The notes below the pieces were generated by a model. The model ran no database searches. It had not been told where the DNA came from and worked only from the letters and a program-made list of their open reading frames with translations. From a virus (taxonomy: Duplodnaviria > Caudoviricetes), in IMG/VR virus record IMGVR_UViG_3300030329_004250, positions 1-56,363 of that record: a stretch of DNA of 56,363 bases; one strand, given 5' to 3'. This document shows positions 6,779 through 48,368 of this stretch, piece by piece. The translations under genes were made by a program, and so were the position numbers. The first letter of the stretch is position 1, and every line of letters begins with the position of its first letter.

Positions 6779-7657
6779 ATGGAAGAAAAAAGAATCACTG
6801 TAAAAAAAGAAACCGGCGAAGGTAAAGACAAAGTTGTAACAGAAACTGATTTGATTATTACTAAGCCCACCAACAAGCAAATGCTGGAAGCTGAACGTGT
6901 CTATAAAGGCGCATTCAGAAAAGCCCTTGAACAAGGTGCAATGCTTCGCAAAAAACTTGGTAATTATATGACGGATCAGGGCATTTGGACTGATAAGCAG
7001 GAAGAAGAATATAACAAAGTTGTCAAAGAGATCAACCTACTAGACTACCAGCTAAACAAAGGTAGGGACGTAGATGGCAACAAGCTCAAGCTAAGTCAAG
7101 CCAAGGAAATGGCCTTTGAGTTGCAAGATAAAAGAATTGAATTCCGGGATTTGATTGCTGAAAGACAGGAGCTTGACCACATGACCGCAGAAGGTCAGGC
7201 AGATACTGAAAGATTCAGTTATCTCGTCTATCTTTGCACAAAAGATTTCCTGACGCAAAAACCTTATTACTCTTCTTATGAGGACTACCAAAATAGGGGC
7301 AATGAGCAGGAAGCTGTAGAAGCCGCCAAGACTGTAGGTGAAATTGTTTACGAAATAGATGAGGATTATGAAGGAACTTTGACGGAAAACAAGTTCCTCA
7401 AACGATTTAAGTTTGCTAATGACAAAAATCAATTAATTGATAAAGATGGAAACCGTATCGATAGAGAGGGTAATAAAGTTGATGAAGAAGGTTATATTCT
7501 AAACAAAGACGGTAAACGTGTTAATGTTAATGACCTTCCTGCTTTAGAAGATGATGAAAAAGTTGACAATGCTGACTTTGAGGACGATTTAGGTGTAGTA
7601 ATAACTGAGGAGAAAAAAGCGACTACCCGGAAGCGGACAGTTAAAAAGAAAGAGTGA
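6779..7657 (+). CDS. hypothetical protein, possible tail assembly chaperone
   Basis: 292 aa, GAGGAG SD; short (D/N)xxG beta-hairpin repeats (DKDGNRI-DREGNKV-DEEGYIL-NKDGKRV); directly before the tape measure. Confidence 0.55.
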   Translation: MEEKRITVKKETGEGKDKVVTETDLIITKPTNKQMLEAERVYKGAFRKALEQGAMLRKKLGNYMTDQGIWTDKQEEEYNKVVKEINLLDYQLNKGRDVDGNKLKLSQAKEMAFELQDKRIEFRDLIAERQELDHMTAEGQADTERFSYLVYLCTKDFLTQKPYYSSYEDYQNRGNEQEAVEAAKTVGEIVYEIDEDYEGTLTENKFLKRFKFANDKNQLIDKDGNRIDREGNKVDEEGYILNKDGKRVNVNDLPALEDDEKVDNADFEDDLGVVITEEKKATTRKRTVKKKE

Positions 7658-26400: not shown

Positions 26401-27570
26401 GACGCAGGACTATTAAGGAAAGCATGTGGCTGGGAAGATGAGATAACTTGTGAGGGTGGTGGTGACAGTGTCGGTGGTGGTGATGGTGGTGATTCAACCA
26501 CACATAGTGGTCACTACTCGTGTGCAGGTACTGATAATTGGGCAAATGTATATGTATGGTGTGATGACCCAGATATTATTGTGACTAGAACCGCCCCCAC
26601 TTCCGACGACACCGATGAATCTCAAGTCACAGGTTTTCAACTGCCAACTTGGGAATGCAGCGGAGATTTCGGAATCCGTTGGTTGACAGACTCTAGACGA
26701 ATTCCTGCGGTTAGTGGATGTTGTGATATTATAACTGATAACGATGGACTATGTGAAACGGATGTTTATGTATTAGGATACGATGGGGCCGATAATCCAC
26801 TGATGGATTGCAACTCAGACTTAGCAGATGATAATCCAGGTGGGATGGTTGTTCTTAGCAATTGGTCAGGTATACCTGAATTTAGTACTATGTGGGCAAG
26901 TGGTTGTGGCTGTGACAAGCCTATAGACGAAGCAGAGGACGAGTGTGGAACAGATTCAAAAGTCAGAATAACAATAACGCAAGACCCAATTTATGGTGAA
27001 GTAGTAAAACCTGACCCACCATTATCTCCATCAGATGTCTTGGCCATAGTCTTTATAGACGAATCTACAGATTACTCAGTTGATGTCGCAGGTGAAACGG
27101 AGTTCATAACAGATATTATAGCTTGGGAAAATCATATGACTGCCCAAGGTTTGGACTCATCCATATTGTTATTACAACCGGTGGCTCCGGGATTATACGA
27201 CTACAAAGATTTAATTCCTCCTAGTAGGCAAGCCCTATCTCCAAATACAGGCCGTGCATTCCCCGATTTCGTGCAGTATGGAGAGATTGGTCGAGGTACT
27301 GCATGTGAACTGGAGGATATCAGATCGCACTTCTTGGCTGCTGCACACACTACTGTGCCGAGAGCTTTAGGTATTTTCATTGATAGATCAGGTTCAATGA
27401 CCAGATCAACTGTGACACCATGTGTAGATGATTTTATAGCTTGGTATAAGCAATGGTCGCTAGAGCAAATAGGAACGGAAGGATGTGTAACAGAAGTACT
27501 GACAGATGATGAACGATGGATAAGTGAGGCTTTACGCGCACTTATACTGGCAGATGCTCAATGTCCGTAA
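20458..27570 (+). CDS. giant Cys-rich putative tail fibre/adhesin with C-terminal vWA-like domain
   Basis: 2370-aa uninterrupted ORF, about 100 Cys by hand count; IFIDRSGSM (DxSxS) near the C-terminus. Confidence 0.6.
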   Translation: MAVFQEKCWPCGKQCINAEFCGIDETYQLPRNIKVKVIANSEFWGSSISGTVIEGYAHFDNSHYDFFDGFDQHHKALDCGKTTSSRDESRPDINYRSVYDPDSVTVVHYGAGGSQDDIDRGGAEVYLVDRVSQNATDSPACPTTDPTKVFKWFPEKFGFGTKIHFHNNIYKNITGGWRLIDPTGCYTESFTTPPGSGGYLHQCTGVDKQNIRIREHSEGTYLQYHEPSRIRPIQSGMTFHDCFADGQVAPEYSGELTQLLRHTGVAESGFIIATLNYDGAAASGLRNAMEILVTNDVDTTYNKAYRIFDVTHSGSSTDVSLVGTYDTGNAVDVNTTGSGNWIAFGTHDPLRCCGGSAYGIDNLLKQSANKTNYHTDFRRVFNDAKNLRQSNRILENRKNHDINVVFRADETGVRPDKTYPSTNADGNPTLVFDRGLPYYGPFHQVDQYDGATRFDQVKNAIKARNATCYSKKATLEVFPDCLTQYEEFLNCEVQTEYKINRLPRLAFVYRGCNYDEFCSFDESGRPLGDSGIYGGWTTSGPATLEDIKRGLPGQEITMFINVADAWGGEYKRCPCACDGSVPGNFPPQHTLIESPITFPCFPDFDKYPVANGCREKRFQFNQYARYIEQVAGSTLSNAACDELPGVDAACNVRQPYTTYGHISHLCGWEFGNAKTTLTNAFAKERQDGTYTQRSPESGNVNEPMYWAFECPTPTESGIPVNSGVWASGTDGDNKITNVSGEFYPYWGLTDGEGRLTTPYYNVTTAPNLGCCDSPITFLDYDDVYTFFNGWPTSGVPFLIELETVDNCVGCATTVMETGSLHLSFQGLSTAYLHDVPTNNNTNAYGFNHCKYEPLDIVLKDRTKLEPNFNCTSGFPVTYCESVEPGSEIKNDRYWIKYGQPYTGSTCECIDAFDTLTLSPVIIDGSTDIIIGWRTVGSGNGFVQLTSCNSTDSNFLESDTENLPGAGYTTYGKFTVACEENIEFVDPPTFPNAYYETSAVHNLYSCGGCTHKEPAQIAGQGNLTLKSQFFVISNLHKHVFEALPQDYFNRFYGDVELATRNIDDFIPWPEYSGVLKNLTLCSGDKILEYGCLLGSEFYGCGSAHTACAGNTLCNTCDEFGVSCQCDSGIFNDYTDPDTNFVTRRYPPQFDWAQDHGLNSCFCDCKDPTLMRISAVSGNHPSEVLIEEWRHAGACDNSVNKFTPWFAISGVGGTVSEPIWKGQAPPAPFLGKGFNPTYSEDWFSFSHGANRSATGIAYRLDEPVADNCGNLDPDSCASGDCIDQRARTSTCLDPIQSVTGVPQEWAYGNANVTVNKRYCSPEIMVVSKIECLPGNSGYNLTVSREYHEHDRTWRQAGSTDCACVEKYAGAYKCPKLVPVSSGTGASGQFTVDVGGTGHFTVTSAGSGYVFGGTAVIPTCVSGTTTYPCCTGTPTPAFSATFGGANNSLTGASISPPTGYSPTGLVCNVSIIAGTGPSVLGTGCTVIPYAVPTDSVTPAYQGPCSIHPSSGTFVNQDFRIQSTCESGDPVWNYYNLFYSGDSVGVPPVVGAANTYESGYYYGGIFIQTDPDAPGGCGPNCDIIIDAPDLDPGYPNTIFDQALFNSPPGRFGIDATNRKHSCIQDITQCGGELWCNKLFFPRRSYKNETKVAPFGSSQICTQNAEFLNRTTLGYGNITDADILQESTFYRYIDLCDPDIIATTQSGVGIDDVVITVDDYLRLMGVVHPGWRYNLDMKSCTIVESGDCGGTLPPTHSDMTIHAAVHEPKTWTTDGWESFGYYLDKNGVSDSSGSGIGASGSDNCLFDPFKIMVDVECSTNHIKRRGIETDDPTLLDAIIDMPAAACKGTVHPPPCSCVDSECKFWNQHPNQHCFKYFAINDIFTKIDDALICPCDPNSLANDRLTHECEGEHCNTGVHICSSAAAGSSPAIFPAFSQWLQNKYVLGNANEFIDNIPLNINPFTPILEFTGIAANVSGVNYTYTGLYDAGLLRKACGWEDEITCEGGGDSVGGGDGGDSTTHSGHYSCAGTDNWANVYVWCDDPDIIVTRTAPTSDDTDESQVTGFQLPTWECSGDFGIRWLTDSRRIPAVSGCCDIITDNDGLCETDVYVLGYDGADNPLMDCNSDLADDNPGGMVVLSNWSGIPEFSTMWASGCGCDKPIDEAEDECGTDSKVRITITQDPIYGEVVKPDPPLSPSDVLAIVFIDESTDYSVDVAGETEFITDIIAWENHMTAQGLDSSILLLQPVAPGLYDYKDLIPPSRQALSPNTGRAFPDFVQYGEIGRGTACELEDIRSHFLAAAHTTVPRALGIFIDRSGSMTRSTVTPCVDDFIAWYKQWSLEQIGTEGCVTEVLTDDERWISEALRALILADAQCP

Positions 27571-29554: not shown

Positions 29555-30337
29555 TTAAACCTCGATTTCTATTAGCCTGTTTTCTTCATCTGGAAACGAG
29601 TCAGCAATTTTGTCTAATTGTTCTACGATACTATCAAGCACAGTTCTCATCTTTTTTTGAGATAGACTTTTAGTCATTTGCTTGACACGAATTAAAACAT
29701 AGCCTTCATTGATTAGCAAGCCTGTTTTTACGGCATCGGACTTCTGATGTTTTTGAAGACTTTCTACTCCCCAAATAGGCAAGAAATGTGACGGACCATC
29801 AATCTCAATAGCCGTTTTAATATCGGAAATATAGAGATCAACCTCCAACTTATTATCTGGAATTAGGTTTCTCTCGTGAAATCTAACAGTCCAGCCTTGT
29901 TCTGTCAAGTTCTTTCTGAGGAATCTTTCCGTTTTTGATCCCTCTGTAGCAGCCTCTCTGACCGCCTGTGCCGCGAGACTTCTAAGGTTCTGCTTCTCCT
30001 CCTCAGACATCGCCAACCAGTTGTCTTTGCTGATCTGAGACAGCCTCTCGCGTTCCTCGTCAGACGTTTCAGACCATGCCTTAGCCCGTCCCTCACTTAC
30101 TTTGAATTTGTGGTCCTCTGTAAGTTTAGAACCTTTCTCAATTGGTGGTTTACTCCTACCTCTTTTAAGAGCTAACTTTTGAGCTTCTGAATAGTCTCTT
30201 TTTTCCGCCCCTAGAAACTTTAGTGCTCTCAAAATCTTAGTTGAGTAAGTACCAAGGTTTTCCGCTATTTCGTAACTGCTACAACCCTCTTCATGCATTC
30301 TCAAGATCTGCTCTTTATTTTCTCTGGCAAATCTCAT
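29555..30337 (-). CDS. putative free-standing endonuclease (HTH + NUMOD3-like + DUF559/Vsr-like nuclease)
   Basis: N-terminal SSYEIAENLG HTH; TEDHKFKVSE repeat-like segment; E...VDLY...AIEIDG.SH. Confidence 0.7.
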   Translation of the reverse strand: MRFARENKEQILRMHEEGCSSYEIAENLGTYSTKILRALKFLGAEKRDYSEAQKLALKRGRSKPPIEKGSKLTEDHKFKVSEGRAKAWSETSDEERERLSQISKDNWLAMSEEEKQNLRSLAAQAVREAATEGSKTERFLRKNLTEQGWTVRFHERNLIPDNKLEVDLYISDIKTAIEIDGPSHFLPIWGVESLQKHQKSDAVKTGLLINEGYVLIRVKQMTKSLSQKKMRTVLDSIVEQLDKIADSFPDEENRLIEIEV

Positions 30338-33813: not shown

Positions 33814-35450
33814 AACCAACTCTCCTCTGGAAACTGTATATTTCCAATTCTCGCATTTTCCCAAAAGTTTTTATTCTTAGCTTTTTCTCTAAACATGTTT
33901 ATTATATCGTCACGAGTAAGCGGTCTATAATTTTCTCTGTTAAAGATGGACATCTCCCCATAGAAGAAGCCACCGGGATTATTCTTAAACTGTTGAAAAT
34001 TGAAATCTCTTAATATTTTATTAATGCTGTAACTGTTGAGCATCTTTGGTTCATTGACAACATGCATAACTAAAAAGTTAATTAAATCTTTATTGTTCTC
34101 AGTCTGTGGGATGTCGGCATCTGGTCTTCCAAACTCTGTAGCCATATCCCATGTGCCGTAATCTAGTTCATCAATACACTGTTCCCAGATTTTAGCTGTT
34201 TTATCCCATCCATAATTTTTCTCAAATGCGGCTCTTGTTTTCTTCCTATCTTTAACTCTAAGAGCTTCTGGTTTAGGTAGTAACTTTTCCCATAACTCTA
34301 TGATATGTTCATGATCTGGTAAAGCGCGGTAACAACCAGTTTCCATTTCTAAATGTTTTGATCTTAGCTTAATTGGATAACCCTGAAGCTTTCTTACTTC
34401 ACTCTCCATAGCTGAGTAATCAGTTGCCATAACTGGAACACCACAAGCCGCCGCTTCTACAATGGGCAGACCAAATCCTTCGCTATTGGCCGGTTGGATA
34501 TAAACATCAAAAAGATTGTAAATATAAGATAAAGTCTTTGTGTCTACACCATCGCCAACATTTGTTAGTTTTGAACCAAACTGGCCACATTTTTTACATG
34601 GGATAACTGTATCGGAAAATCTTTGACATGATGCTGCACCACACGCAGCGCATAAATATGTAAATATCACTCTAGAACTTATTTCATTTTCAAATAAATA
34701 CTTGGGCAAGTCCCATCCATTATCTGGGTATGAAGTATGACAATACAGGTACGTATTAGTATCGCCAGTCTTTTTAAGATACTTACCAAATGCCTCGAAA
34801 AGTTCTGGAAATAACTTTCGACGCTGATTTCTCATGACTGTGCCGATAATCTTCCATTCGGGATTTATCCCCATTTTTTCTTTATGAGCAGTTTTATTTG
34901 GAACTTCTGCAAAATCTTCCGATGCAGATGGTGGTGCAGCACATTTCACATTCATTCTATCAGACTGGGATTTTAGAACATCCACAGCCCAATCAGAGTA
35001 TGTGAGCACAATGTCAGCATCTGAAAAAGAGTCGATCCACTCTTCATTCTGTGGTGAAGCATCCACAGTTGGCATCCATACCCATTTAAAGCATTTTCTT
35101 AATGGGGAATGCTGAATAAAAGCGTCCATCCACCAGTCACGGATGGTAAGTACAACATCTGGTTTAAAGTCTAAACAGGCTCTGTCAAATCGCCACTTAC
35201 CAAACTGATTAAGACCGTCTTTACCATAAATTTCGTTTTGTTCTTGATTTCCCGCTTGCGGCATATTTGGATAATTTTTCCAAGGGATGGTGCCGCGATC
35301 TTTATGGTCCTCTGTGCCATAAGTTGAGAATTCTGCTAGTTCGTACTTCCCAGTAGCATGAAGTCTTTTTAGTACTTCTCTGCTATATGTCGCATATCCA
35401 GTATTTAAATAACTAGCTTCAGAAACGAAAAGTACTTTTTTTTTATTCAT
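33801..35450 (-). CDS. GT4-family (GT-B) glycosyltransferase with Zn-ribbon insertion
   Basis: TGYA, RNQRRK, EGFGLPIVEAAACG motifs; CAAC...CKKC insertion. Confidence 0.9.
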   Translation of the reverse strand: MNKKKVLFVSEASYLNTGYATYSREVLKRLHATGKYELAEFSTYGTEDHKDRGTIPWKNYPNMPQAGNQEQNEIYGKDGLNQFGKWRFDRACLDFKPDVVLTIRDWWMDAFIQHSPLRKCFKWVWMPTVDASPQNEEWIDSFSDADIVLTYSDWAVDVLKSQSDRMNVKCAAPPSASEDFAEVPNKTAHKEKMGINPEWKIIGTVMRNQRRKLFPELFEAFGKYLKKTGDTNTYLYCHTSYPDNGWDLPKYLFENEISSRVIFTYLCAACGAASCQRFSDTVIPCKKCGQFGSKLTNVGDGVDTKTLSYIYNLFDVYIQPANSEGFGLPIVEAAACGVPVMATDYSAMESEVRKLQGYPIKLRSKHLEMETGCYRALPDHEHIIELWEKLLPKPEALRVKDRKKTRAAFEKNYGWDKTAKIWEQCIDELDYGTWDMATEFGRPDADIPQTENNKDLINFLVMHVVNEPKMLNSYSINKILRDFNFQQFKNNPGGFFYGEMSIFNRENYRPLTRDDIINMFREKAKNKNFWENARIGNIQFPEESWLCQK

Positions 35451-35913
35451 TTACTGCTCTTAACTTATTATAAAATGACCTGACTTTAGCTTTATAGTCC
35501 TTTTTTGACATATCCAAAATATCCCTAATTTCCATATCTTTGTAATTTGATCTTTTGTAGTAAAAGATAGCTTGTTCTTCAATATCTAAATCATCTGGCA
35601 AAACTTCATCTATAGCTGTTTTATCATAAGTTGTAAAACTGCCTAGAAAGTCGCTTAATGCTATATCTCTGTTTTTGTTCTGTTTTTTAATAAACTTAAT
35701 TAGATCATTTCTAATACAGAAAGTAGCAAATGTAGAAAAGACACTTCGGCTAGGGTCGTGCTTCCTATATGCTTTAAGCATTGACATTAAAGCCACTTGT
35801 ATTATATCCTCAAAATCATAATTATGACCGTGAGAATAAAACTTACGGGCTAACGAAATCGCTAACCCGTAGTTTTCATTTATAAAATCATTTTCAGTAT
35901 TCTTCATCTGCAC
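35443..35913 (-). CDS. sigma-70-family RNA polymerase sigma factor (short, regions 2+4)
   Basis: DFEDIIQ.A...L.A...DP...FSTFA..CIRN; C-terminal HTH; ATG at 35907 is a likely start. Confidence 0.8.
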   Translation of the reverse strand: MQMKNTENDFINENYGLAISLARKFYSHGHNYDFEDIIQVALMSMLKAYRKHDPSRSVFSTFATFCIRNDLIKFIKKQNKNRDIALSDFLGSFTTYDKTAIDEVLPDDLDIEEQAIFYYKRSNYKDMEIRDILDMSKKDYKAKVRSFYNKLRAVNE

Positions 35914-36211
35914 TCGTCTGTAAGTTATTGACTATCTTAAATTCATTGACTCTAAAAGTTACTTTACCGTTACCGCTACGTGCTGTACAGTTTACCACCA
36001 AAGAGTCTCCTACTTCACAATGGTCATAAATAGTTTGCGCGCCACTGTCCCATGCTTCAAAGAATAGGAAGTTCCTATCTCTAATTTTCTGACCGCTTTT
36101 ATTTTTGCGGTACTTATCAATTGACATTTTAAATCTAAGAACTTTCGTGTTGAATTCTTCTGAGATATTCATGTCTTCAGCAATACGTCCAAGAAAAACA
36201 CAATTATTCAC
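35894..36211 (-). CDS. ssb: single-stranded DNA-binding protein
   Basis: MNN.VFLGR..D ... F.AW...A.....GD OB-fold signature; acidic tail ADEEY. Confidence 0.8.
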   Translation of the reverse strand: MNNCVFLGRIAEDMNISEEFNTKVLRFKMSIDKYRKNKSGQKIRDRNFLFFEAWDSGAQTIYDHCEVGDSLVVNCTARSGNGKVTFRVNEFKIVNNLQTSADEEY

Positions 36212-36215
36212 AACG

Positions 36216-36485
36216 CTACCTCTTTTTAGTTAAGGAGTTAAAACGCGAAAAAGCTTCGTTATAGTTATGATACTGTTCAATAACCTCTTTTGATCCTTTA
36301 TTTGATTTGTAGATCTGTATTCGAGGTTTTTCTATATCATATCGACTACGAGAACGAGAGCGAAAAAAGAAACGTAGATCACACATTTCTACGTCATATT
36401 TTTTTATAATACAACCATCAAGCAAGACTTTCTTATAGTAGTCCACTTGGTTTAAGAGATTGGTTTCCCAGTTTTGATCAGTCAT
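36216..36485 (-). CDS. hypothetical protein
   Basis: 89 aa; ATGA overlap with the DnaE C fragment. Confidence 0.65.
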   Translation of the reverse strand: MTDQNWETNLLNQVDYYKKVLLDGCIIKKYDVEMCDLRFFFRSRSRSRYDIEKPRIQIYKSNKGSKEVIEQYHNYNEAFSRFNSLTKKR

Positions 36486-38014
36486 ATCTGATTTATTTCG
36501 TTTACGATGAACGAGTTTCGGTCCCTAGCACGCTGACCAAACATTAAGACTGTAGCGGTCTCATATATTATATCCTGATACTGATGATATATGTCAGGAA
36601 AAACGACAACATTTTCAATTTCTACAGAATCGTCTCTAACTGATAGAAATGCCATCTTGTCTTTGTTCTTGGTCGTGTGCTCTTTTACTTGAGTGATTTC
36701 AACAGCTAGTATACTTTTATTCTTCTTACCGTCAAGCACTTCTTTGCAGGTCGTGTTGGCGAAACTAGCGTCAGCACAGCCATCTACTTTTGAGTAAGAG
36801 ATAGGGACACCAAGCAGGTTTTCTTCACTAATTGAAATCGACATGGGATTGTCTTTTAATGATCTGCCGGGATTTTCTAATCTATTAATTATATCTGAAA
36901 ATGCTTCTAGTCTTTTGGTCGTTGCAACAGCACCGCCGTCTTTTTTTAATCTATTCAGGTTTATGAGATTATCTTTTAAAGATAGGGAGGAATCTACTCT
37001 GTCTTGCAGGGTCTCCAATTCTTTCTTACTCAGATCTTTTATGCAAGAGAATTCGTGGGTCATTTCTGATCTTGACTTTTTCAGTCCCGCGAAGAATCCA
37101 ACTGCAATAAGATTGTTTACCGCCCTTTTATTTACATTGGGTAAAATGTTCACTACATATTCTACCCAGGTTTTTGGTTTTAGTTCGTTAAGAAAATCCT
37201 TGAGTTTGATGAATTCATTTACTCCAACATTTTTGACATTGGTTATGCCGAAGTAAATGTCCCTATCCTGTATAGAGAAGTTTGATTCTGGATATTCATG
37301 TAGGGGTGTTTTTACGTTGATATGGTCTAACTTGGCACTCTCTACAAGTTCATAAATTTCCTGATTGGGATCGATTTTTTCTTTTGCATTTGACAGCCAG
37401 TGAAGATAAAACTCCAACTTTTTATTAGCTTTTAAATAGGCAGACCAGTACGCCATCAGTGCATACGATACTGCGTGTGATTTGTTGAAAGAATACCGGT
37501 TAGACTTTTCGATAATATCAAAGATTCTATCAGCATCTTCTTGTGTATGTCCTTCTTTTAGGCATCCTTCAATGAACTCACCTTTGACCTGACGCATGAG
37601 GTCAGCTTTTTTCTTACCAATCGCTTTTCGCAAAGTATCAGCTTGTGACTCTGTGAAGCCAGCCATGACCTGTGCAATTTGCATAGCTTGTTCTTGGTAA
37701 ATGATAATATTATAGGTTCTGGAGATTACCTTGTCAATAGGTTCGTACAGACTTTTAGTTTCTTCTATATTATGTTTTCTGTCCACGTACCTTTGGGTCA
37801 TGGACTTCCCGTCTTCGATAGCTTTTAGTGTACCGGGACGGATGATAGAAATAACGTCAGCCAGTTCCTCGATATTGCGGGGTTTAGCCTCTTTGCACCA
37901 ATGTTTACCAAGATGAGTTTCTAACTGGAACACGCCTTTGGTATGACCGGAACAAATCAAGTCCCAAGTTTTTTTGTCTTTAAGATTGCATTTTGTGATA
38001 TCAATAGTGTCCAT
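36482..38014 (-). CDS. dnaE: DNA polymerase III alpha-like, C-terminal fragment (fingers, HhH, OB)
   Basis: TKGVFQLE, IRPG, IIYQEQ.MQIA, LRKAIGKK, YSFNKSHAVSY, MAFL OB fold; GGAGG SD before ATG 38014. Confidence 0.92.
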   Translation of the reverse strand: MDTIDITKCNLKDKKTWDLICSGHTKGVFQLETHLGKHWCKEAKPRNIEELADVISIIRPGTLKAIEDGKSMTQRYVDRKHNIEETKSLYEPIDKVISRTYNIIIYQEQAMQIAQVMAGFTESQADTLRKAIGKKKADLMRQVKGEFIEGCLKEGHTQEDADRIFDIIEKSNRYSFNKSHAVSYALMAYWSAYLKANKKLEFYLHWLSNAKEKIDPNQEIYELVESAKLDHINVKTPLHEYPESNFSIQDRDIYFGITNVKNVGVNEFIKLKDFLNELKPKTWVEYVVNILPNVNKRAVNNLIAVGFFAGLKKSRSEMTHEFSCIKDLSKKELETLQDRVDSSLSLKDNLINLNRLKKDGGAVATTKRLEAFSDIINRLENPGRSLKDNPMSISISEENLLGVPISYSKVDGCADASFANTTCKEVLDGKKNKSILAVEITQVKEHTTKNKDKMAFLSVRDDSVEIENVVVFPDIYHQYQDIIYETATVLMFGQRARDRNSFIVNEINQI

Positions 38015-38186
38015 ACAAGCAAACCTCCGCATCAACTTTTTGAATTACCCATTTTTTAATTGTACGGGTCGTCCCGTATTTTTCAAGACTGATTCCACGA
38101 ATGAAATCTCTCCAATACTGTGTCTCTATATCTTCTGGACTTTTTTCTTTAGTTTTTCTATTGTTGGACCACTTAACCTGTTCCAT
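38001..38186 (-). CDS. possible small hypothetical protein
   Basis: 61-aa ORF filling the gap but overlapping both neighbours; no recognisable motif. Confidence 0.3.
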   Translation of the reverse strand: MEQVKWSNNRKTKEKSPEDIETQYWRDFIRGISLEKYGTTRTIKKWVIQKVDAEVCLYGHY

Positions 38187-38824
38187 AATTGTAAGCCGCT
38201 CCTGAATTCTATATAGTTCACCGATACAGCGAAGTCATTATACTTTGCATCTATTTCTTCGTTAGGTATAATAAAAGAGTAGATTTTGATCTTGCCCTTT
38301 GAATCTTCAACCAGCATACTTTTAAAAAACTCATGTGGCACAACCACATCTTCACCAATTTTAGAAAATGGTTTGGTGATATCGAACACGGGTCCGCTGA
38401 TAGAATAAACCTCTACCACATTTTCTTTAAGAGCCATTGTCCTAGCTTCTTCTTCTAACATCCTCCAAACTTTACGATTTAAATCTGGATGTTGCGGAGC
38501 CATGTTAGACATTAGAAATGTTTCACTATTTTCCAATCTGCTCGAATTCCGATCCGCAGAAGGCACCAGATGCCCCCTATCGTAGCCTGAACCGCGATAA
38601 TCCGCTAGACTGCACCGGAAGGTTTCTGGGATTCTCAAGTCCGGTCTGAAGCAATCCTCGCGGTCTACAGAGACATCCTCTGCCTGACCGTCAATAATGT
38701 GCATGGACCATCTTGGTTGCCGGAATAAGTAGGAATAGCCGATCAAATAATTCCGGTTTGGAAGGATCTGATCGGCAGTTGGCATACCGTATCGTGTTTG
38801 TGGGAATAAGCTTGGTATTTCCAT
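38126..38824 (-). CDS. DNA/RNA non-specific endonuclease (NucA/EndoG-like)
   Basis: SGYDRGHL, TFLMSNMAPQ..LNR..W..LE, VP.EFFK motifs. Confidence 0.92.
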   Translation of the reverse strand: MEIPSLFPQTRYGMPTADQILPNRNYLIGYSYLFRQPRWSMHIIDGQAEDVSVDREDCFRPDLRIPETFRCSLADYRGSGYDRGHLVPSADRNSSRLENSETFLMSNMAPQHPDLNRKVWRMLEEEARTMALKENVVEVYSISGPVFDITKPFSKIGEDVVVPHEFFKSMLVEDSKGKIKIYSFIIPNEEIDAKYNDFAVSVNYIEFRSGLQLWNRLSGPTIEKLKKKVQKI

Positions 38825-39504
38825 TAGGCAAAAGCTCCTTTAAACTTTTTGTTATATACAAATCTTCTAAACATCTTCATGGTTCTACAGAATAACTCAG
38901 CAGTCATGAGAACATCACTAAGTGCATCATGGGCCTCGCCTTGTGAGTATCCCATGTAACCACGCACTAGGTTATCATTAGATAGTGAATTAACCTCTTT
39001 GTTATTTTCAAAACAGCAGAACATCAAATCTAATGTGTCCACTATATTAATTGGATTGAATAAAGACTGCCGCCTACCATCTTTATCTTTTGGTCCGTAA
39101 CCCCAAGGTTTTTCACAACAAATCCTGTGAACAATCGGCATGTCAAACCCGCGAATATTATGACCAACCGCAATTGGTGCATACCAAGGGGTCTTTTTAA
39201 AATTGTATTCATTCACATAATCAGTGAAGTTTGACCAGACTGATTTTAGTGATGGAGCCTTCTTGAGCATGGCTTCGGTTTTACCATGAACAGCGACAGC
39301 ACCATCTTCAAGAACATCGACTCCAGCTTTAGCACATTCTTTCTCGTCGAAGATAGGCTGGATTAAAGATTGGAATTCTGAGTTAGGTATGACCTCCAGC
39401 TTCCTGCCGTGAATCGCCACAGCAGCAATTTGCACTGGCTGAGTGGTATCTGGATATTTGCTCGTAGTTTCAAAGTCGAAAACAATGTAGTCTTTGTAAT
39501 TCAT
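38824..39504 (-). CDS. DEDDh 3'-5' exonuclease (DnaQ/epsilon-like)
   Basis: VFDFETT, GHNI.GFD, AHDALSD motifs. Confidence 0.9.
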   Translation of the reverse strand: MNYKDYIVFDFETTSKYPDTTQPVQIAAVAIHGRKLEVIPNSEFQSLIQPIFDEKECAKAGVDVLEDGAVAVHGKTEAMLKKAPSLKSVWSNFTDYVNEYNFKKTPWYAPIAVGHNIRGFDMPIVHRICCEKPWGYGPKDKDGRRQSLFNPINIVDTLDLMFCCFENNKEVNSLSNDNLVRGYMGYSQGEAHDALSDVLMTAELFCRTMKMFRRFVYNKKFKGAFA

Positions 39505-39524
39505 AATAATCCTTTGTAAGAAAA

Positions 39525-39599
39525 TGGGGCGTCTAAGTGAAAGCGTGAATCTGGATCGGCATTACCGCCCAGATAATTACCTAAACTTAGATCACCCCA
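39525..39599 (-). repeat. structured non-coding element, copy 2 (core 39533-39590)
   Basis: Minus strand TGGGGTG-A-T-CTAAGT-TTAGGTAATT-ATCTGG-[GCGGTAATGCCGAT]-CCAGAT-TCACGCTTTC-ACTTAG-A-CGCCCCA; its TAA is the DnaE middle-fragment stop. Confidence 0.8.
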
Positions 39600-40429
39600 C
39601 ATGTTTCATGTATTTTCTTTAATAAATTAACACCAAGGATGTCGAACTTGACAGCACCAATAGCCTCAAGATCACCCATTTCCATCCCCGCGATTTTTTC
39701 ATTACCGCGAGTTTCTTTGACCATAGGGCATAGATTATTCAGATCTATAGATGATACTACCACACCAGCGGCGTGTTTTCCTTGAGTTTTGAATGTTCCT
39801 TCAATTCTAAGAGCTTGGGCAAAATCTCTAGCAAAGTCGCCGTGTAATTCACCATCTTCTTCCCAACAGTATTCTCTTAGTGTATCCGGGTCATTTTCCA
39901 AGGCCCATCGAATAACTGATGGCTCATCCATTTCTTCTAATTTATCAGAGATTGCAGCTTCTTGCGGAATCTTATTTGTGATATCGTTCATCTGGTCGAA
40001 TGAGCAACTCTCATTAACTCTTAGAACTTCTTTTAATGCGGATCTACCTTGGAGTCTACCAAACGTCAGCATCTGGCAAACCCTATCTTCTCCGTATTTT
40101 TCTTTTAGATAGATGATGACATTCTCTCGTTGGTCTGGCGGGAAGTCAACATCAATATCTGGTAATGACGCTTTTGCTTCCACAAAAATTGTTGGAGCGT
40201 TTTCGTCCACGCTCTTGACTTTATCATAAATCCACATGATGTAACTGTTTTTAGGATTATCTGATGATAAATCAATATTGTTTATTATATGTTTATAATA
40301 TTCCTTTCCTTTTTTCATTTTCAGAACTACGTTCATTTCTTCCTGAAAATGATTGTTTTCGGAAACTCGATTAAACCGTTTTTCATTTGGAAGTTTACCA
40401 AAAAATGTTTCAAGTTCTGTAATATTCAT
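39587..40429 (-). CDS. dnaE: DNA polymerase III alpha-like, middle catalytic fragment
   Basis: SLPDIDVDF, YL.EKYG, TFG, GKHAAGVV, KFDILG (all three catalytic Asp). Confidence 0.92.
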   Translation of the reverse strand: MNITELETFFGKLPNEKRFNRVSENNHFQEEMNVVLKMKKGKEYYKHIINNIDLSSDNPKNSYIMWIYDKVKSVDENAPTIFVEAKASLPDIDVDFPPDQRENVIIYLKEKYGEDRVCQMLTFGRLQGRSALKEVLRVNESCSFDQMNDITNKIPQEAAISDKLEEMDEPSVIRWALENDPDTLREYCWEEDGELHGDFARDFAQALRIEGTFKTQGKHAAGVVVSSIDLNNLCPMVKETRGNEKIAGMEMGDLEAIGAVKFDILGVNLLKKIHETCGVI

Positions 40430-41342
40430 TAACCTTGTCCCATTTACGATTTAGTTTTATAGTGTTTTCGTCAAAGGTGTTAAGTTTGGTTAAAATCTCC
40501 AAAACGTCATTTTTTGCTGACCATCGTACATCGTACAGTTCTTGATTTTTTTTCTTGTATATTCTTTTACTCTTAAAACCAAGAGTGTCACACACTTCTG
40601 TTAGTGTGTCTTTTAAGTAGGAGCAAGCGCCTATATTTGGGTAACGATATTCTTTTCTGTATCTTTTATTATATGTAGTTTTAATTCCGACCCATCCATC
40701 AGCATCTATAAAACCACGAATAAAATCGTATTGATGTGTTTTTGGCACTGGTATGATCTGATCATAAGTTTTTCTGTTGATGATTCCATTATTTTTTAAG
40801 TTATCAACTAAATATGGATTCGTTACTCTTAATAAGCTCTTGGTTTTATATTTATAAACCCTATCCACCCCATAGATATAGTTAGACAGTTTTATCAGAT
40901 GACCTTCATCCTTCTTTGACAAACATACTTGCAAATTCGTATAATTTTTATCAACTGACCCGTCACCAAAAATAAATCCCAACCAATACGAGGATTCTGG
41001 AGTTATCTCAGAAAAGTTATTAATGACATCAAACCTTTTATGCTCTATAAAACACTGGTGTGAGCAGTACTTAGCTTTTCTACTTGGGGATCTTTTAACT
41101 ATTTCTTTACAATTTAGACATCTGATCTCTTCTTTTATAGAAACCATTTGTTTTCTAATTGGGCACCATTGACTACAAGATTTTATTTTTAGTTTTTTCA
41201 ACTGCTGTATTTGAATAGTTCTCTTTTTTCCACAATCACAGATACAATCAACCACCTGTCTTCTATGACTGCCGCAGCCGTATTCTTCCAAGTAGTAAGG
41301 GGTAGATATTACTGTTAGTAAATCATATTTAGTGTTCTTCAT
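40410..41342 (-). mobile_element. free-standing double-motif LAGLIDADG homing endonuclease gene
   Basis: YWLGFIFGDG and FIRGFIDADG motifs; N-terminal CICDCG and CxxC/YCS..C modules; lies between two dnaE fragments. Confidence 0.85.
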
Positions 41343-41383
41343 TTTTAAACCTTTAGTAGTGGGTATAAAACTCTCCGTAATAG

Positions 41384-41392
41384 TTATACACC
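41384..41392 (-). promoter_or_regulatory. candidate promoter GGTGTATAA inside a hairpin
   Basis: Same 9-mer as 4142-4150, about 42 nt before the LAGLIDADG ATG. Confidence 0.45.
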
Positions 41393-41402
41393 CAAACTGG
41401 GT

Positions 41403-42716
41403 CTATTTGAAGTTTTCCAGATAATTTAATTCGTCAAATGACACATGTTTTTCGTATGATCTACTATTATTATAGAAACGACTGAATACCAACCCGTACT
41501 CAATGGGATCAATTAAGGTAATACCTATTAAATAGGAAATGAGACATCCTGCGGCACTGCCACGACCTGGCCCAACCAGAACACCCCTGCGGCGGAACTC
41601 GTTTACATAATCCGCAACAATGAGGAAGTAGCCTGAAAGATCCGCATCTTCGATGACTTCTAACTCTTGAAGAATTCGATCTTTGTAAATTTCTATATCT
41701 TCTTTTTCGTCAACCTTGCCGGTGGGCATGAGAACATTCCTCCACCCATCACGACAAAGCTGTTTTAGTTCCTCGATCTGAGATTTATTTTTGGTTTCAA
41801 CTTGCGGCAGTCTTGGTTTAGCCAAGATCGTATAAGCTGAACATTTCTTATTTATCTCACCAACGGTTTTAATCTGGTCTTTTGAATATGTTTGCACTTC
41901 TTCTTTACTAGGAATATAGTAAGAGTTAGACTTGAAATATCTAACATACCTATAATTGTCTTCTTTTAGAAGGTCTTTATTAACCTTATTTAAAGTTGTT
42001 CTCATCTTGGAACATAGCAAAACTCTATGATCTTTTGAGTCTGCCATTTCTCCGTAATAAATATTTGCTCCAGCAAGAAGGTTTTTAAAACCAATACTGT
42101 CAGCAACTTCATCGACACAGTTAGAGATCAATTTAGTGGCGGCAAAAGTCTCAGAATCTAACTTATTTATTTCAAGGTAGTAATCATCACCAAACTTTTC
42201 TGTGAACTTACTAATGTGTACAACAGCGTCTTCTTTGTATTCTCTCTTTAGGCACTCACCAGCCTCGTCGTATTCTGAACAACTATAGATACATTTGTTA
42301 TCTTCTATAAACTCGTTGAATAATGCACTGCCAACGTAACCATCTATGCAGATGAAGTTTTCATCAACAAGTTCAAACAGTTGATCTATAGGAATAGCCG
42401 GATGTTTCTTGAAATTATCGGCATCATTACATGCTGATACTATTTCAAGAAGTTTAGCCCAGCCCTTTTCGTTTTTACAGATCAGCGTGACTGTGGTATT
42501 GTTGGATGTTTTGAGAGGTATTTCACAACCAAGAATTGGCTTGATGTCATTATCTTCGCACTCCTGCACAAACTTGACAGCACCCGATACAGAAGCAAAG
42601 TCAGTCAGTGCCGCAGTCTCATAACCAAGTTCTTTACATATTTTTACAATTCTTTTAGGCTTGAGGGTTGACTGTAGTAGAGAATAGTGCGAATGTATTC
42701 TGGTTGGGAACCACAT
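41403..42716 (-). CDS. dnaE: DNA polymerase III alpha-like, N-terminal fragment (PHP + first palm segment)
   Basis: HSHYSLL, ALTD, IKPILGCE, YFLIVAD, VGPGRGSAAG, DP..YGLVFSRF. Confidence 0.92.
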   Translation of the reverse strand: MWFPTRIHSHYSLLQSTLKPKRIVKICKELGYETAALTDFASVSGAVKFVQECEDNDIKPILGCEIPLKTSNNTTVTLICKNEKGWAKLLEIVSACNDADNFKKHPAIPIDQLFELVDENFICIDGYVGSALFNEFIEDNKCIYSCSEYDEAGECLKREYKEDAVVHISKFTEKFGDDYYLEINKLDSETFAATKLISNCVDEVADSIGFKNLLAGANIYYGEMADSKDHRVLLCSKMRTTLNKVNKDLLKEDNYRYVRYFKSNSYYIPSKEEVQTYSKDQIKTVGEINKKCSAYTILAKPRLPQVETKNKSQIEELKQLCRDGWRNVLMPTGKVDEKEDIEIYKDRILQELEVIEDADLSGYFLIVADYVNEFRRRGVLVGPGRGSAAGCLISYLIGITLIDPIEYGLVFSRFYNNSRSYEKHVSFDELNYLENFK

Positions 42717-43766
42717 CTACTTATCCTTTTCAACTCTGTCTTCTGCTAATCGACCACCACCGTCACCATACTTTGAAATCTTTGAGATATCGCCGTATTG
42801 CTCGATGGTCTTTACAATTCCTTGAGATTTTACCATATCTCGGAAGAAATGGCAAGTGGACTTTCCAGAATTTTCCCATTCTTCCGAAAATTTGCACAGA
42901 TATTTACATTTCCAGTGTGTGTTTTCTGATGATAAAAGTCTGGGCTGTTCAACGGACCTAATATACTCAAACTTTTGTCTCAGTATGTCTTCTGCCTTTT
43001 GGTAATCTTCTTCATCGAAGACCATGCTAAACAAACCACCCGGAACATCCACCCCATCTATCTTTGAGTCATTAATATAATAAATGCTAACAAAGAATTC
43101 CCAATCCGGATACATATTCTTAAGGGCGTAGTAGTACAGAAGAAGCTGAGTGTCTTTCTGTAGTTTTTCTGGGGTTTTGATTTCTCCAGTCGCCCAATCA
43201 ATCCGTTTGCCGGTTTTATAATCTAATACCTGAAAGTACTTATCGTCTTCTTGGGTGATTAAATCTATAGTTCCTTTAATAGATAAATACCCTTCGATTT
43301 TTTCCCCGCCTACATCATAACTATATTTTGCCCACGGTTTCTTGATTTCAATATCAAAGAATAATTCCGTAGCATGGACATTTTGATTTCTTGGATCTAG
43401 CTCACCGTCATTGTATGCTACCGCTTTCTGGACCCATCTTATGCAGGTTCTCAGGTCTGCTTTGGTTAGTTCGACCTCTGGCTCATGTTCTGCATAGTAG
43501 TCAAAACATAATTCAGTTATGTGCGGTAGGTCATCACATTTTTTGTAAGATAGGTTGGGGATATCATCATTGATAACCTTACCGACCTTGTTCTTCTGCG
43601 CCAGATTCTTGTCTGCCAATAGCTGCAATGCGCGATGAACAACCGTACCAAGAAGTGCCTTCCTGTTGGTTTTATCGCGTAATGACAGATTGTATTGGAG
43701 AAAGAATTTCTGTTCACAAAATTCTAACTGACCAAGTGAACTAGATCTGTGGTAGCATACTAACAT
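42717..43766 (-). CDS. Cas4/RecB-like PD-(D/E)XK exonuclease
   Basis: SSS....FC, GT.VH, GTIDL, DYKTG, QL..Y, C-terminal CKYLC...C. Confidence 0.8.
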   Translation of the reverse strand: MLVCYHRSSSLGQLEFCEQKFFLQYNLSLRDKTNRKALLGTVVHRALQLLADKNLAQKNKVGKVINDDIPNLSYKKCDDLPHITELCFDYYAEHEPEVELTKADLRTCIRWVQKAVAYNDGELDPRNQNVHATELFFDIEIKKPWAKYSYDVGGEKIEGYLSIKGTIDLITQEDDKYFQVLDYKTGKRIDWATGEIKTPEKLQKDTQLLLYYYALKNMYPDWEFFVSIYYINDSKIDGVDVPGGLFSMVFDEEDYQKAEDILRQKFEYIRSVEQPRLLSSENTHWKCKYLCKFSEEWENSGKSTCHFFRDMVKSQGIVKTIEQYGDISKISKYGDGGGRLAEDRVEKDK

Positions 43767-43783
43767 AATTGCTCTTATAAATT

Positions 43784-43854
43784 ATCGAGGGGTCTAGGTA
43801 AGGTGTTGAACCCGGACTAAACCGGATGACGACTTGAACCTAGATCCCCTCGAT
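43784..43854 (-). repeat. structured non-coding element, copy 3 (core 43794-43843)
   Basis: Minus strand ATCGAGGGG-A-T-CTAGGT-TCAAGTCGTC-ATCCGG-[TTTAGT]-CCGGGT-TCAACACCTT-ACCTAG-A-CCCCTCGAT; its TAG is the dNMP kinase stop. Confidence 0.8.
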
Positions 43855-44604
43855 GTATTTAGGTAAAATCCCCCATGCCTGAATCTGTTCAAGCACAAGC
43901 TTATTCTGTTCTTCTACACTAGTATTAGTATTATCAATAATACAATCATAATGATCTTTATATTCAGATGCTTTTTCACTATCATGCCCATCTGATGATT
44001 CTGAATTTCTAGTAAAGTAAATAACCTTACCGCCAGCTTCGTGGACCGCATCTATTTCGTTTTTGAATCGGCAGTCGCCAATAAGTGCTAGGTTGGGGTT
44101 TTCATCTTTGATCTGTTTGATACAGAGTGAAACCCAAACATCGTCTTTTATCTTACGGCAGATGTCTGTACCAAAAGCTTGCATGAACTCGCGGGCAGTC
44201 ATGCGACCACTTGAGTCTTGTGAAACATTGTCCCACAGAATATCGGTCAGACTATTCTTTTGCTCATCTGTACCATAGCACTGCTCCCTATCAAGACCAA
44301 ATAGAGATATGCACAATCTCTTTAGTGGGTCTGCAAAATTATAAGCTTTTACAAAAGGCCAAAACGTAGTTGACGCATAGTCGGCAAAGGTCTGACTTTC
44401 CTGAAAAACATCAAACACGCCCATAGATTCAAATTCTTTATCATTATCATCTAAATATTTCGCATTTACTACTAGCCTACCAGCCTCATCTATGAAAAAT
44501 TGCTTAATGAAACCATGAGACTTCATCTCATGACCATGCAGGAAGTTGACAGATGTAGTTTTGCCAGACTGTTTAGCACCAGCAAATGCGATAATGTTTG
44601 ACAT
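43840..44604 (-). CDS. deoxynucleoside monophosphate kinase
   Basis: GAKQSGKT, FADPLK, REFMQ.FGTD..R, DCRF.NE, H.SE motifs. Confidence 0.88.
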   Translation of the reverse strand: MSNIIAFAGAKQSGKTTSVNFLHGHEMKSHGFIKQFFIDEAGRLVVNAKYLDDNDKEFESMGVFDVFQESQTFADYASTTFWPFVKAYNFADPLKRLCISLFGLDREQCYGTDEQKNSLTDILWDNVSQDSSGRMTAREFMQAFGTDICRKIKDDVWVSLCIKQIKDENPNLALIGDCRFKNEIDAVHEAGGKVIYFTRNSESSDGHDSEKASEYKDHYDCIIDNTNTSVEEQNKLVLEQIQAWGILPKYIEGI

Positions 44605-47488: not shown

Positions 47489-47982
47489 TTTGTTCTCGCT
47501 AAATTGTTTAAGGTATCCGCCATTTTTCTGAATGGTTCAATAACATCATCATATAAAATTAGCACACTGTGTATCTTCCTCATAAGCTCCCTTAGTTTAA
47601 ATGTTGTTTTACATTTTTCACAAATCATTTGTTCTTTTGCTTCGTATTTTGTGAATTCAGGAAAACTCATAGAAGGAAGATAGTGGTTAATCGCGTCTTT
47701 ATAGGCGGATTCTATTTGTTGGAATATCACCTTGTGCCTATTTCTCTCTGTAATTATACGACTAATGTGGGACTGTATTAGGTATGCACTATGGTAAACA
47801 TCTTCAGAAGACATTTCTGCCATAGTTGCCCTATCAATATTTAAAGACTCGCAAACTGCTGGATCTAGTTTTACCAGCCCTAGGTTGCCACCAATCTCAT
47901 ACTGATTGATAAAACTTTCAATCTTCGCAATAAGTTCTTTTTCTTCTTCACTTATAACGAGTCTATGATCAAGTTTTTCCAT
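47485..47982 (-). CDS. hypothetical helical protein (possible UvsY-like mediator)
   Basis: 165-aa coiled-coil-like ORF between recA and the helicase; function is positional guesswork. Confidence 0.5.
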   Translation of the reverse strand: MEKLDHRLVISEEEKELIAKIESFINQYEIGGNLGLVKLDPAVCESLNIDRATMAEMSSEDVYHSAYLIQSHISRIITERNRHKVIFQQIESAYKDAINHYLPSMSFPEFTKYEAKEQMICEKCKTTFKLRELMRKIHSVLILYDDVIEPFRKMADTLNNLARTK

Positions 47983-48368
47983 TGGTCTTCTTTATTATAA
48001 GGTAGCACAATTATTGTAAAATCGTTTAACTCACACCATTCGATCTTCTTTTTATCTCTTTTACGAGATTTCATGAAGTCGGCTTTTGTCTTGTGAAAGT
48101 GTGAGCAATATTCATAGTGTTGCTTACCATGAACTTCCACAATAATATATTTATTGGGAATAAGAAAGTCTGCATACAGCAGACCAGTAGAAATGGTTTT
48201 AGAGCCGGGAAGAGTTACTTCTTCGTATATCCTCTGATACGGGAACAACTCAGAAAGTAACTCTCTAGCTCTAATATGATGGGAAGATTTATTATCTCGT
48301 CCTGAGTTCCCCCTGAACCTTTTAAAGGTCAGGGCGTGTTCCCTCCCATCAAAGCCGGTAACTTTCAT
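47952..48368 (-). CDS. DUF559/Vsr-like PD-(D/E)XK endonuclease
   Basis: EEV...ADF...IVEVHG.QHY...RD..K..WC. Confidence 0.75.
   Translation of the reverse strand: MKVTGFDGREHALTFKRFRGNSGRDNKSSHHIRARELLSELFPYQRIYEEVTLPGSKTISTGLLYADFLIPNKYIIVEVHGKQHYEYCSHFHKTKADFMKSRKRDKKKIEWCELNDFTIIVLPYNKEDQWKNLIIDSL

Follow-up and report, generated by a model that had tools for sequence, protein, structure and literature searches.

The window analysed here, IMG/VR record IMGVR_UViG_3300030329_004250 (positions 1 to 56,363), is the complete sequence of a 56,363-base metagenome record of an uncultured marine phage that is rated 37% complete, and the present account concerns its DnaE-type DNA polymerase, which is encoded in three separate open reading frames (ORFs). 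PHROG matches reveal a tailed-phage structural block and a replication block on the minus strand. The replication block includes genes for ribonucleotide reductase, dCMP deaminase, dUTPase, PhoH, a UvsX-like recombinase, a DnaB-like helicase, primase and dNMP kinase, and further holds a PD-(D/E)XK nuclease, the DnaE pieces, a single-stranded DNA-binding protein (SSB), a sigma factor and a glycosyltransferase. Four to five adjacent minus-strand genes form the polymerase block, in which the DnaE parts are the following:

41403..42716, minus strand: DnaE piece 1, the PHP domain and N-terminal palm with the GRGS nucleotide-binding segment; 437 residues, ending at a TAG stop codon
39587..40429, minus strand: DnaE piece 2, an 85-codon helical leader followed by the catalytic palm and the thumb, from the PDIDVD strand to the KFD strand; 280 residues
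36482..38014, minus strand: DnaE piece 3, the fingers, helix-hairpin-helix and OB-like C-terminus; frame open from 38035

The first-pass annotation of this DNA had recognized three colinear DnaE ORFs, and the order of the Pfam matches bears this out. Piece 1 matches PHP (E = 9e-28) and positions 2-99 of DNA_pol3_alpha, piece 2 matches positions 98-260 of the latter profile, with the match beginning only at residue 86, and piece 3 matches DNA_pol3_finger (E = 2.5e-46), HHH_6 (E = 9.6e-6) and, weakly, an OB domain. PHROG 405 spans all three ORFs colinearly. The C-family set of PHP, GRGS palm, catalytic aspartates, fingers, helix-hairpin-helix and weak OB domain is complete and in colinear order, and the motifs for catalysis and binding can be read intact in the translations. 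Both breaks lie where they had been placed. The first separates the GRGS segment from the catalytic aspartates, at profile position 98/99 and before the PDIDVD strand, and the second is clean, coinciding with the end of the palm profile (260/260) and lying near the start of the finger profile (19/166), without extra residues on either side. A model of piece 2 superimposes onto the palm and thumb of DnaE structures with Z-scores of 8-13.8, the top match having a root mean square deviation (r.m.s.d.) of 3.9 Å across 175 residues (VIA alignment); every solved structure among the matches listed for this model is a single chain. The ATG at 38014 is the likely start of piece 3, because a GGAGG lies 9 nucleotides (nt) upstream of it.

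A search of IMG/VR with piece 3 returned 75 loci (L001-L075) at 26-96% identity, of which 74 carry both palm and fingers; L011, which is cut short, is the one outside this set. The nearest relatives are L001-L003, with 94-98% identity in piece 2 and 76-98% in piece 1. A motif scan of the same database gave 29 loci, 17 of them with DnaE pieces (including L086, L092, L094, L096, L100-L102 and L109), and a protein search with piece 2 among 5.8 billion proteins, limited to lengths of 154-490 residues, gave 410 relatives. No match was obtained by blastn of 36000-43000 against 50,697 phage records, and tblastn of piece 3 against cultured phages gave none above 30% identity among the matches listed.

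When the window is aligned with L001-L003, a block of extra sequence stands out at break 1. It has the following parts:

40175..41459, minus strand: mobile cassette of tail, hairpin, endonuclease gene and leader; 1,285 nt extra relative to L001-L003
41406-41459, minus strand: tail on piece 1, 18 codons (420-437), then TAG
41343..41402, minus strand: spacer with a conserved hairpin; 60 nt
40410..41342, minus strand: free-standing LAGLIDADG homing endonuclease gene with a Cys-rich N-terminal part; 310 residues
40175-40429, minus strand: leader opening piece 2, 85 codons, cassette-borne

L001-L003 lack precisely this block: in them, piece 1 passes from residue 419 straight into residue 86 of piece 2 without a change of frame. 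Codons 1-419 of piece 1 are colinear with these relatives in tblastn, and codons 420-437 are the cassette-borne tail. The endonuclease ORF matches LAGLIDADG_3 at residues 117-149 (E = 2.9e-6) and LAGLIDADG_1 at residues 209-297 (E = 9.4e-5), both just above the cut-offs, which gives two LAGLIDADG-type domains in one chain; it also matches PHROG 4645, 'endonuclease' (E = 2.8e-25). The end of the gene overlaps the start of piece 2 by 20 nt. The first-pass annotation, which included neither the genes in the gaps nor the tail and the leader, had described the split as free of any intein or intron signature. That description is not borne out for gap 1, since a LAGLIDADG gene is a classic passenger of mobile introns and inteins.

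The distribution of the cassette is that of a mobile element. The same cassette lies in the same place in L076, a second contig, where the endonuclease is 75% identical, and a cassette is found at this place again in distant loci of the L030 type, in which the endonuclease is 31% and piece 3 is 38% identical. The L030 phage has a near-identical relative, L062, that carries the uncut allele. Pieces 1 and 2 form one stop-free frame in 65 of the 74 loci, and the endonuclease gene and leader are present in nine, which are near-identical copies of one phage. Among the 17 motif-scan loci, 12 have the endonuclease gene (nine copies of the L030 phage, L086, L100 and L109) and five are without it. Two pairs of loci with and without the cassette could be compared along their length. 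The window and L002 share 93-95% of their nucleotides, with 54-60 of 60 positions identical per bin until the bin adjoining the junction, where 39 of 57 agree, and L030 and L062 are ~99-100% identical away from the site (60/60), with 44-51 of 60 positions identical beside the junction. A drop in identity confined to the junction in both pairs is the pattern that would be expected of co-conversion in homing, or of allele replacement. In run X7, from another sample, cassette-bearing contigs occur together with one contig that skips 40175..41485 (1,309 bases) and has 24 other letters between. Break 1 is most likely recent in this lineage, and the comparison of alleles suggests that it was made or is maintained by the mobile LAGLIDADG cassette.

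Two smaller observations were made in and near this region. In runs X6 and X8, contigs join 40684 back to 39611 across 30 other letters, a joint below the listing threshold, and also end loosely at 40664; the joint may derive from a relative in which a fragment of a related endonuclease lies downstream of the palm gene. The PD-(D/E)XK nuclease gene upstream of DnaE carries an in-frame insertion of ~330 residues at L030:2036-4024 (also in L017, L050-L056 and L067), which is intein-like, with a LAGLIDADG_3 domain and a His-Asn end before Thr; the window's copy of this gene, at 42717-43766, is uninterrupted.

Break 2, between palm and fingers, is different in kind. Its gap holds two genes:

38824..39504, minus strand: DnaQ-like (DEDDh-type) 3'-5' exonuclease gene; RNase_T, E = 2.2e-16, residues 7-205
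38126..38824, minus strand: DNA/RNA non-specific endonuclease gene in gap 2; Pfam Endonuclease_NS, E = 2.3e-45

The exonuclease gene also matches PHROG 192, 'DNA polymerase exonuclease subunit' (E = 5e-25), and three exonuclease motifs can be read in its translation, their acidic residues and the final-motif His being those of the DEDDh type. Its product is probably the proofreading subunit of the split DnaE. The related phages include DnaE genes in one, two and three pieces, so that the uncut, single-break and double-break states are all represented. An exonuclease gene lies between separate palm and fingers ORFs in 71 of the 74 loci, and palm and fingers are unsplit, in one stop-free frame without the exonuclease gene, in the three most distant (L073-L075). 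Because the relative frames of palm and fingers vary among the loci, break 2 is not an in-frame element; judged from this distribution, it is an old, inherited, family-wide gene fission at a domain boundary. L100 (1839-4025) has break 1, with the endonuclease gene and leader, and yet its palm and fingers are one ORF without an exonuclease gene between them, so the two breaks occur independently.

The non-specific endonuclease gene, which overlaps the stop codon of the exonuclease gene, is found besides the window only in L001-L003 (3 of the 74 loci), and is probably a lineage-specific extra rather than a part of the polymerase. Candidate roles for it are the breakdown of host DNA or that of another selfish nuclease. 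In L004, a 64-residue ORF (7012-7206) separates the palm gene from the exonuclease gene; the corresponding gap is 82 nt in the window and ~80 nt in L001-L003. Piece 3 itself is interrupted in some relatives by canonical in-frame inteins with HNH domains (L002:7197-8000, L067:8140-8860, L068:8140-8850 and L070:8490-9305), located after the RPG motif in L002, L067 and L068 and in the FNK/SH motif in L070. The window has neither.

The layout of the genes bears on how the pieces might be expressed. The 77-nt stretch 41336-41412 folds at -23.4 kcal/mol (z = -3.69; one of 200 shuffles is as stable), in a hairpin whose paired bases include the GG of the Shine-Dalgarno sequence and the start AUG of the endonuclease gene. 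The spacer shares 55 of its 60 bases with L076, 40 of them in one uninterrupted stretch, whereas piece 1 overall is 72% identical. Hairpins before the starts of gene-fracturing endonucleases are described in PMC2677866, and the present one probably keeps translation of the endonuclease low on a long operon transcript. A promoter and terminator scan of 36000-44000 gave counts not above those of shuffles (33 vs 25.8, s.d. 4.2, and 8 vs 5.5, s.d. 2.5). It placed no minus-strand terminator-like site in the gaps between the pieces, the single minus-strand site lying inside the non-specific endonuclease gene. Shine-Dalgarno-like sequences precede the exonuclease gene and piece 3. Piece 1 and the endonuclease ORF are in the same frame with one TAG between them; recoding of this stop codon was considered and rejected, as TAG ends 12 of the 57 chosen window ORFs and all three stop codons are in use.

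Both protein segments that the cassette adds to DnaE are conserved. Among the 120 listed of the 410 piece 2 relatives, at least 51 cover at least 90% of the protein including the leader, at 45-99% identity, and some of these leader-bearing relatives sit on contigs longer than 100 kb. Seven leader residues (E31, Y44, Y45, N58, N61, S62 and W66) are invariant in 21 aligned stand-alone proteins with 45-87% identity. In the AlphaFold2 model of piece 2 the leader forms five helices, with predicted local distance difference test (pLDDT) values of 86-94. Of the 8 nt at which the tail departs from that of L076, 6 are third codon positions, and its ratio of nonsynonymous to synonymous substitution rates (dN/dS) is 0.043. 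In L092, L094 and L102, tail, leader and palm are one continuous ORF with no endonuclease gene, and for this reason the tail and the leader can be regarded as the two ends of a ~100-residue in-frame insert. Tail and leader can also be split in the absence of an endonuclease gene, by a single stop codon in L101 and by a short dead spacer in L096. As these loci read, the endonuclease gene occupies the variable linker of an inserted module. A scan of bacterial and archaeal genomes with an alignment of the module found one locus, on a contig of a metagenome-assembled genome that is 99-100% identical to the L030 phage.

We propose, with a probability of about 0.72, that the replicase is assembled non-covalently, without splicing, from the separately translated DnaE pieces and, most likely, the exonuclease. 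Pieces 1, 2 and 3 and the DnaQ-like protein would each be translated on their own. The GRGS segment of piece 1 would be placed facing the aspartates of piece 2, piece 3 would dock at the palm-fingers boundary and the DnaQ-like protein would join as proofreader, while re-association of the tail and leader halves would help to join pieces 1 and 2; the complex so formed would be an active polymerase. The older fission would have given rise to break 2, and the endonuclease cassette, later, to break 1. The first-pass annotation had pictured a heterotrimer with a composite active site. Separate polypeptides are still the best reading, but the exonuclease makes four or more chains likely. All DnaE pieces and the exonuclease are under purifying selection, with dN/dS values of 0.03-0.13: 0.05-0.08 for piece 1 (against L001/L002), 0.03-0.05 for residues 86-277 of piece 2, 0.04 for piece 3 (against L001) and 0.03-0.13 for the exonuclease. 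The LAGLIDADG endonuclease has a value of 0.117 (against L076).

Several observations weigh against the proposed assembly or against parts of it. Since the record is rated only 37% complete, this phage may possess another polymerase outside the 56 kb. The contigs of run X7 were matched at 90% likeness, and the empty allele among them may come from a co-occurring relative rather than from the same strain. Rfam can miss group I introns with a large ORF, and a scan of eight related loci at gathering scores found no intron that could have served as a positive control. None of the listed RNA runs contained 39500-42800, and the one RNA run compared shared next to none of its sequence words. Prediction of the L094 module alone by AlphaFold2 (102 residues, 10 sequences) gave a mean pLDDT of 60, with the tail below 50, too poor to interpret, and a search with the leader in the ESM Atlas returned no feature match, with all structure rows at template modelling (TM) scores below 0.5.

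Under the proposed assembly the tail and leader may form a two-part clasp, the halves of which re-associate and hold the GRGS segment beside the aspartates; we put forward this role tentatively, at slightly under even odds. In some phages the module forms one inserted domain, and the strand of the tail should accordingly pack against the leader helices. Alternatively, the pieces could assemble via the native interfaces of the palm, and the tail and leader would be functionless, decaying leftovers of a break region duplicated by the insertion of the endonuclease gene, so that piece 1 would end in a pseudo catalytic strand and piece 2 would begin with a pseudo N-palm. By inspection, the L030 tail aligns with the start of the catalytic strand of the uncut L062, with the aspartates replaced, BLAST alignments of piece 2 to the unsplit DnaE of Gordonia and Bacillus phages are colinear through the leader into the GRGS region, and three VIA rows align residues 5-280 of the model to residues 290-572 of E. 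coli alpha. However, the VIA rows that include the leader have r.m.s.d. values of ~9 Å, the hhalign probability of the leader against the N-palm is 0.3%, and a 26-sequence leader profile reaches at most 3.4 bits on real sequences in hmmsearch and up to 9.0 on shuffles. Residues that are invariant across proteins only 45% identical, and the low dN/dS of the tail, are moreover unlike free decay. We therefore regard functionless leftovers as unlikely. A duplicate origin and a present function as a clasp are compatible, and it is possible that the add-ons originated as a decayed duplication of the break region.

It is quite improbable that the pieces are remnants and that replication relies on host Pol III or on another phage polymerase encoded outside the record. 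The incompleteness of the record leaves room for this, and endonuclease insertions can inactivate genes. Against it, dN/dS is low (0.03-0.13) in every piece, the catalytic and binding motifs are intact, and the same three-piece layout recurs in several diverged lineages. The 152-kb record of L030, rated 100% complete, has this layout; apart from the two pieces it gave no DnaE palm match, nor any match to PolA or PolB. An intact polymerase elsewhere, with the present pieces decaying, had been named as the observation that would speak against a split enzyme, and neither the complete relative nor the selection on the pieces shows any sign of it.

Removal of the cassette by splicing is still less probable, at the level of RNA or of protein. 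In the first case, break 1 would be a self-splicing group I intron, pieces 1 and 2 would be joined in the mRNA and DnaE would consist of two chains. LAGLIDADG genes are typical passengers of group I introns, and the insertion is exactly colinear with the uninterrupted allele, with ~115 and 235 nt flanking the ORF. Yet there was no Rfam match at E <= 1 over 35000-44000, and at E <= 10 the matches in each flank numbered just three, all at chance level (E = 0.19-10, well short of the gathering scores) and none of them an intron family. In a group I intron the sequence outside the ORF is RNA and does not code for host protein. At break 1, by contrast, what follows the ORF on the 3' side is the in-frame leader, which dozens of stand-alone proteins retain at identities as low as 45%, and the changes in the 5' flank are mostly at third positions (dN/dS 0.043). 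The tail and leader form one ORF without the endonuclease gene in L092, L094 and L102, and an intron could not persist in this form. We consider the intron very improbable.

The other splicing alternative, in which the tail would be the very short N-part and the leader the long C-part of an atypically split intein, and the pieces would be ligated after translation, is just as improbable. Natural split inteins with N-parts of ~16-25 residues exist, a size range that speaks for this possibility, as do real split inteins in relatives (piece 1 of L067 and piece 3 of L072). These last are true fractured genes, at L067:5052-6265 and L072:8525-9826, in which an N-terminal split-intein half ends the upstream ORF (with a Hint match in L067) and ~1.2 kb follow before the host gene resumes, in another frame in L072. 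The window has the outward layout of such genes as given in PMC2677866, with a free-standing endonuclease gene, its start preceded by a hairpin, separating the halves of the host gene. The first-pass annotation had seen no intein features at the fragment ends, and on this point it holds: the tail region, the leader and the L094 module lack any Hint or Intein_splicing match at E <= 1, whereas the same Pfam search found the inteins of L002 (E = 1.6e-8), L067 (E = 7.6e-7) and L070 (E = 4.4e-6). In addition, the leader is predicted to be all-helical and Hint domains are rich in β-structure, no conserved Asn precedes the catalytic strand, the +1 residue is S, A, Q or E, and the first residue of the tail varies.

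The closest parallels for break 1 are phage genes split by selfish endonucleases. In Aeromonas phage Aeh1, nrdA is reportedly split into nrdA-a and nrdA-b by a free-standing mobE gene, without intron or intein, and gp43, the PolB enzyme, is encoded by two genes in some T4-related phages. A comparison with Aeh1 nrdA had been drawn for the split DnaE as a whole; it fits break 1. The two breaks, merged in the first-pass annotation, differ in kind. The Aeh1 and gp43 systems share with break 1 an essential enzyme cut near its active site by a selfish endonuclease gene, halves in separate ORFs with the endonuclease gene between them, an uncut allele in close relatives, signs of homing and a hairpin before the endonuclease start. 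Unlike in Aeh1 or gp43, the host gene in the window is a C-family DnaE, the endonuclease is of the LAGLIDADG type, and the halves carry conserved add-ons of 18 (tail) and 85 (leader) residues. We know of no such protein add-ons in Aeh1 or gp43.

A second parallel is provided by the 'fractured genes' of marine and lake metagenomes (Dassa et al. 2009, PMC2677866). They include three dnaE loci, and the article also refers to the Aeh1 case. Like the window, they combine two host ORFs, a free-standing endonuclease gene between them and an upstream hairpin, in environmental phage-like DNA. As described there, they carry split inteins that ligate the halves, with N-parts of 88-105 residues and all Hint motifs; their endonucleases are of the GIY-YIG or Vsr-like type, and the term LAGLIDADG is absent from the text. 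The add-ons in the window differ from those inteins in size (18 and 85 residues), in the helical nature of the leader and in the lack of a Hint match. Cyanobacterial DnaE is likewise encoded in separate genes and is joined by an intein that splices in trans (Wu 1998 and Caspi 2003, cited in PMC2677866). It is split at another integration point, however, and its genes lie at distant loci, with the halves joined by the intein.

The fold and motifs of the window's DnaE are those of the E. coli Pol III core (alpha and epsilon) and of single-chain DnaE structures (5lew, 4iqj, 2hpi, 2hnh and 5fkw), and a separate DEDDh exonuclease is the likely proofreader in the window, as it is in the E. coli core. 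In the solved structures alpha is one chain, whereas the window has three, with the exonuclease gene inside the split gene. A cultured phage with a related arrangement is Tenacibaculum phage Larrie (GenBank ON950054, genus Cbastvirus; L112 3442-7022), which has two DnaE coding sequences ('DNA polymerase III alpha subunit') divided at the break 1 site. They are cut just before the strand with the catalytic aspartates, are 2 nt apart and have no endonuclease gene between them. Unlike in the window, the first coding sequence has ~55 extra residues and the second ~18, and the second runs through the fingers, so that Larrie lacks break 2; its piece 2 is 29% identical. The second coding sequence begins like a C-terminal intein half and may be a dead split-intein remnant. 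A literature search, with subscription journals outside its scope, gave among the matches listed no intein-free phage DnaE split and no exonuclease gene inside dnaE. The locus of the window is an endonuclease-split phage gene combined with an undescribed but widespread two-gene DnaE.

To our knowledge, C-family replicases have been studied only as single alpha chains. A natural three-protein DnaE would show where the C-family fold tolerates cuts, and would offer a simple co-expression system for the assembly of the palm and the docking of the proofreader. The cassette appears to sit in an essential coding sequence without RNA or protein splicing, by carrying protein add-ons. A broader proposal, which we hold with less confidence than an even chance, is that the add-ons are a portable, splicing-independent clasp and so a third way, besides introns and inteins, for homing endonucleases to occupy the core of an essential enzyme; together with the older fission, this would result in an active site made by two chains, with the fingers supplied by a third. 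If the clasp is real, the add-ons might serve as a small non-covalent protein-complementation tag. The series of loci comprises genes that are uncut, cut at either site or cut twice, and modules that are fused or split, the latter with or without the endonuclease gene. The order of events is testable because all of these states are available.

Other features of the window were noted in passing. Between the polymerase and the SSB gene, an 89-residue ORF at 36216-36485 has a 4-nt overlap with the stop codon of piece 3. Counterparts with 62-93% identity occur in L001-L003, and the sole Pfam match of the ORF is a sub-threshold one to DUF6821. The structural block contains two very long ORFs, one at 20458-27570 (2,370 residues, no PHROG match) and one at 7732-14103 (2,123 residues, tape-measure-like). 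Genes for HNH-type endonucleases (PHROG 559) are also present in the replication block, at 29555-30337 and 47952-48368, and with these two besides the LAGLIDADG gene the genome carries several selfish nuclease genes.

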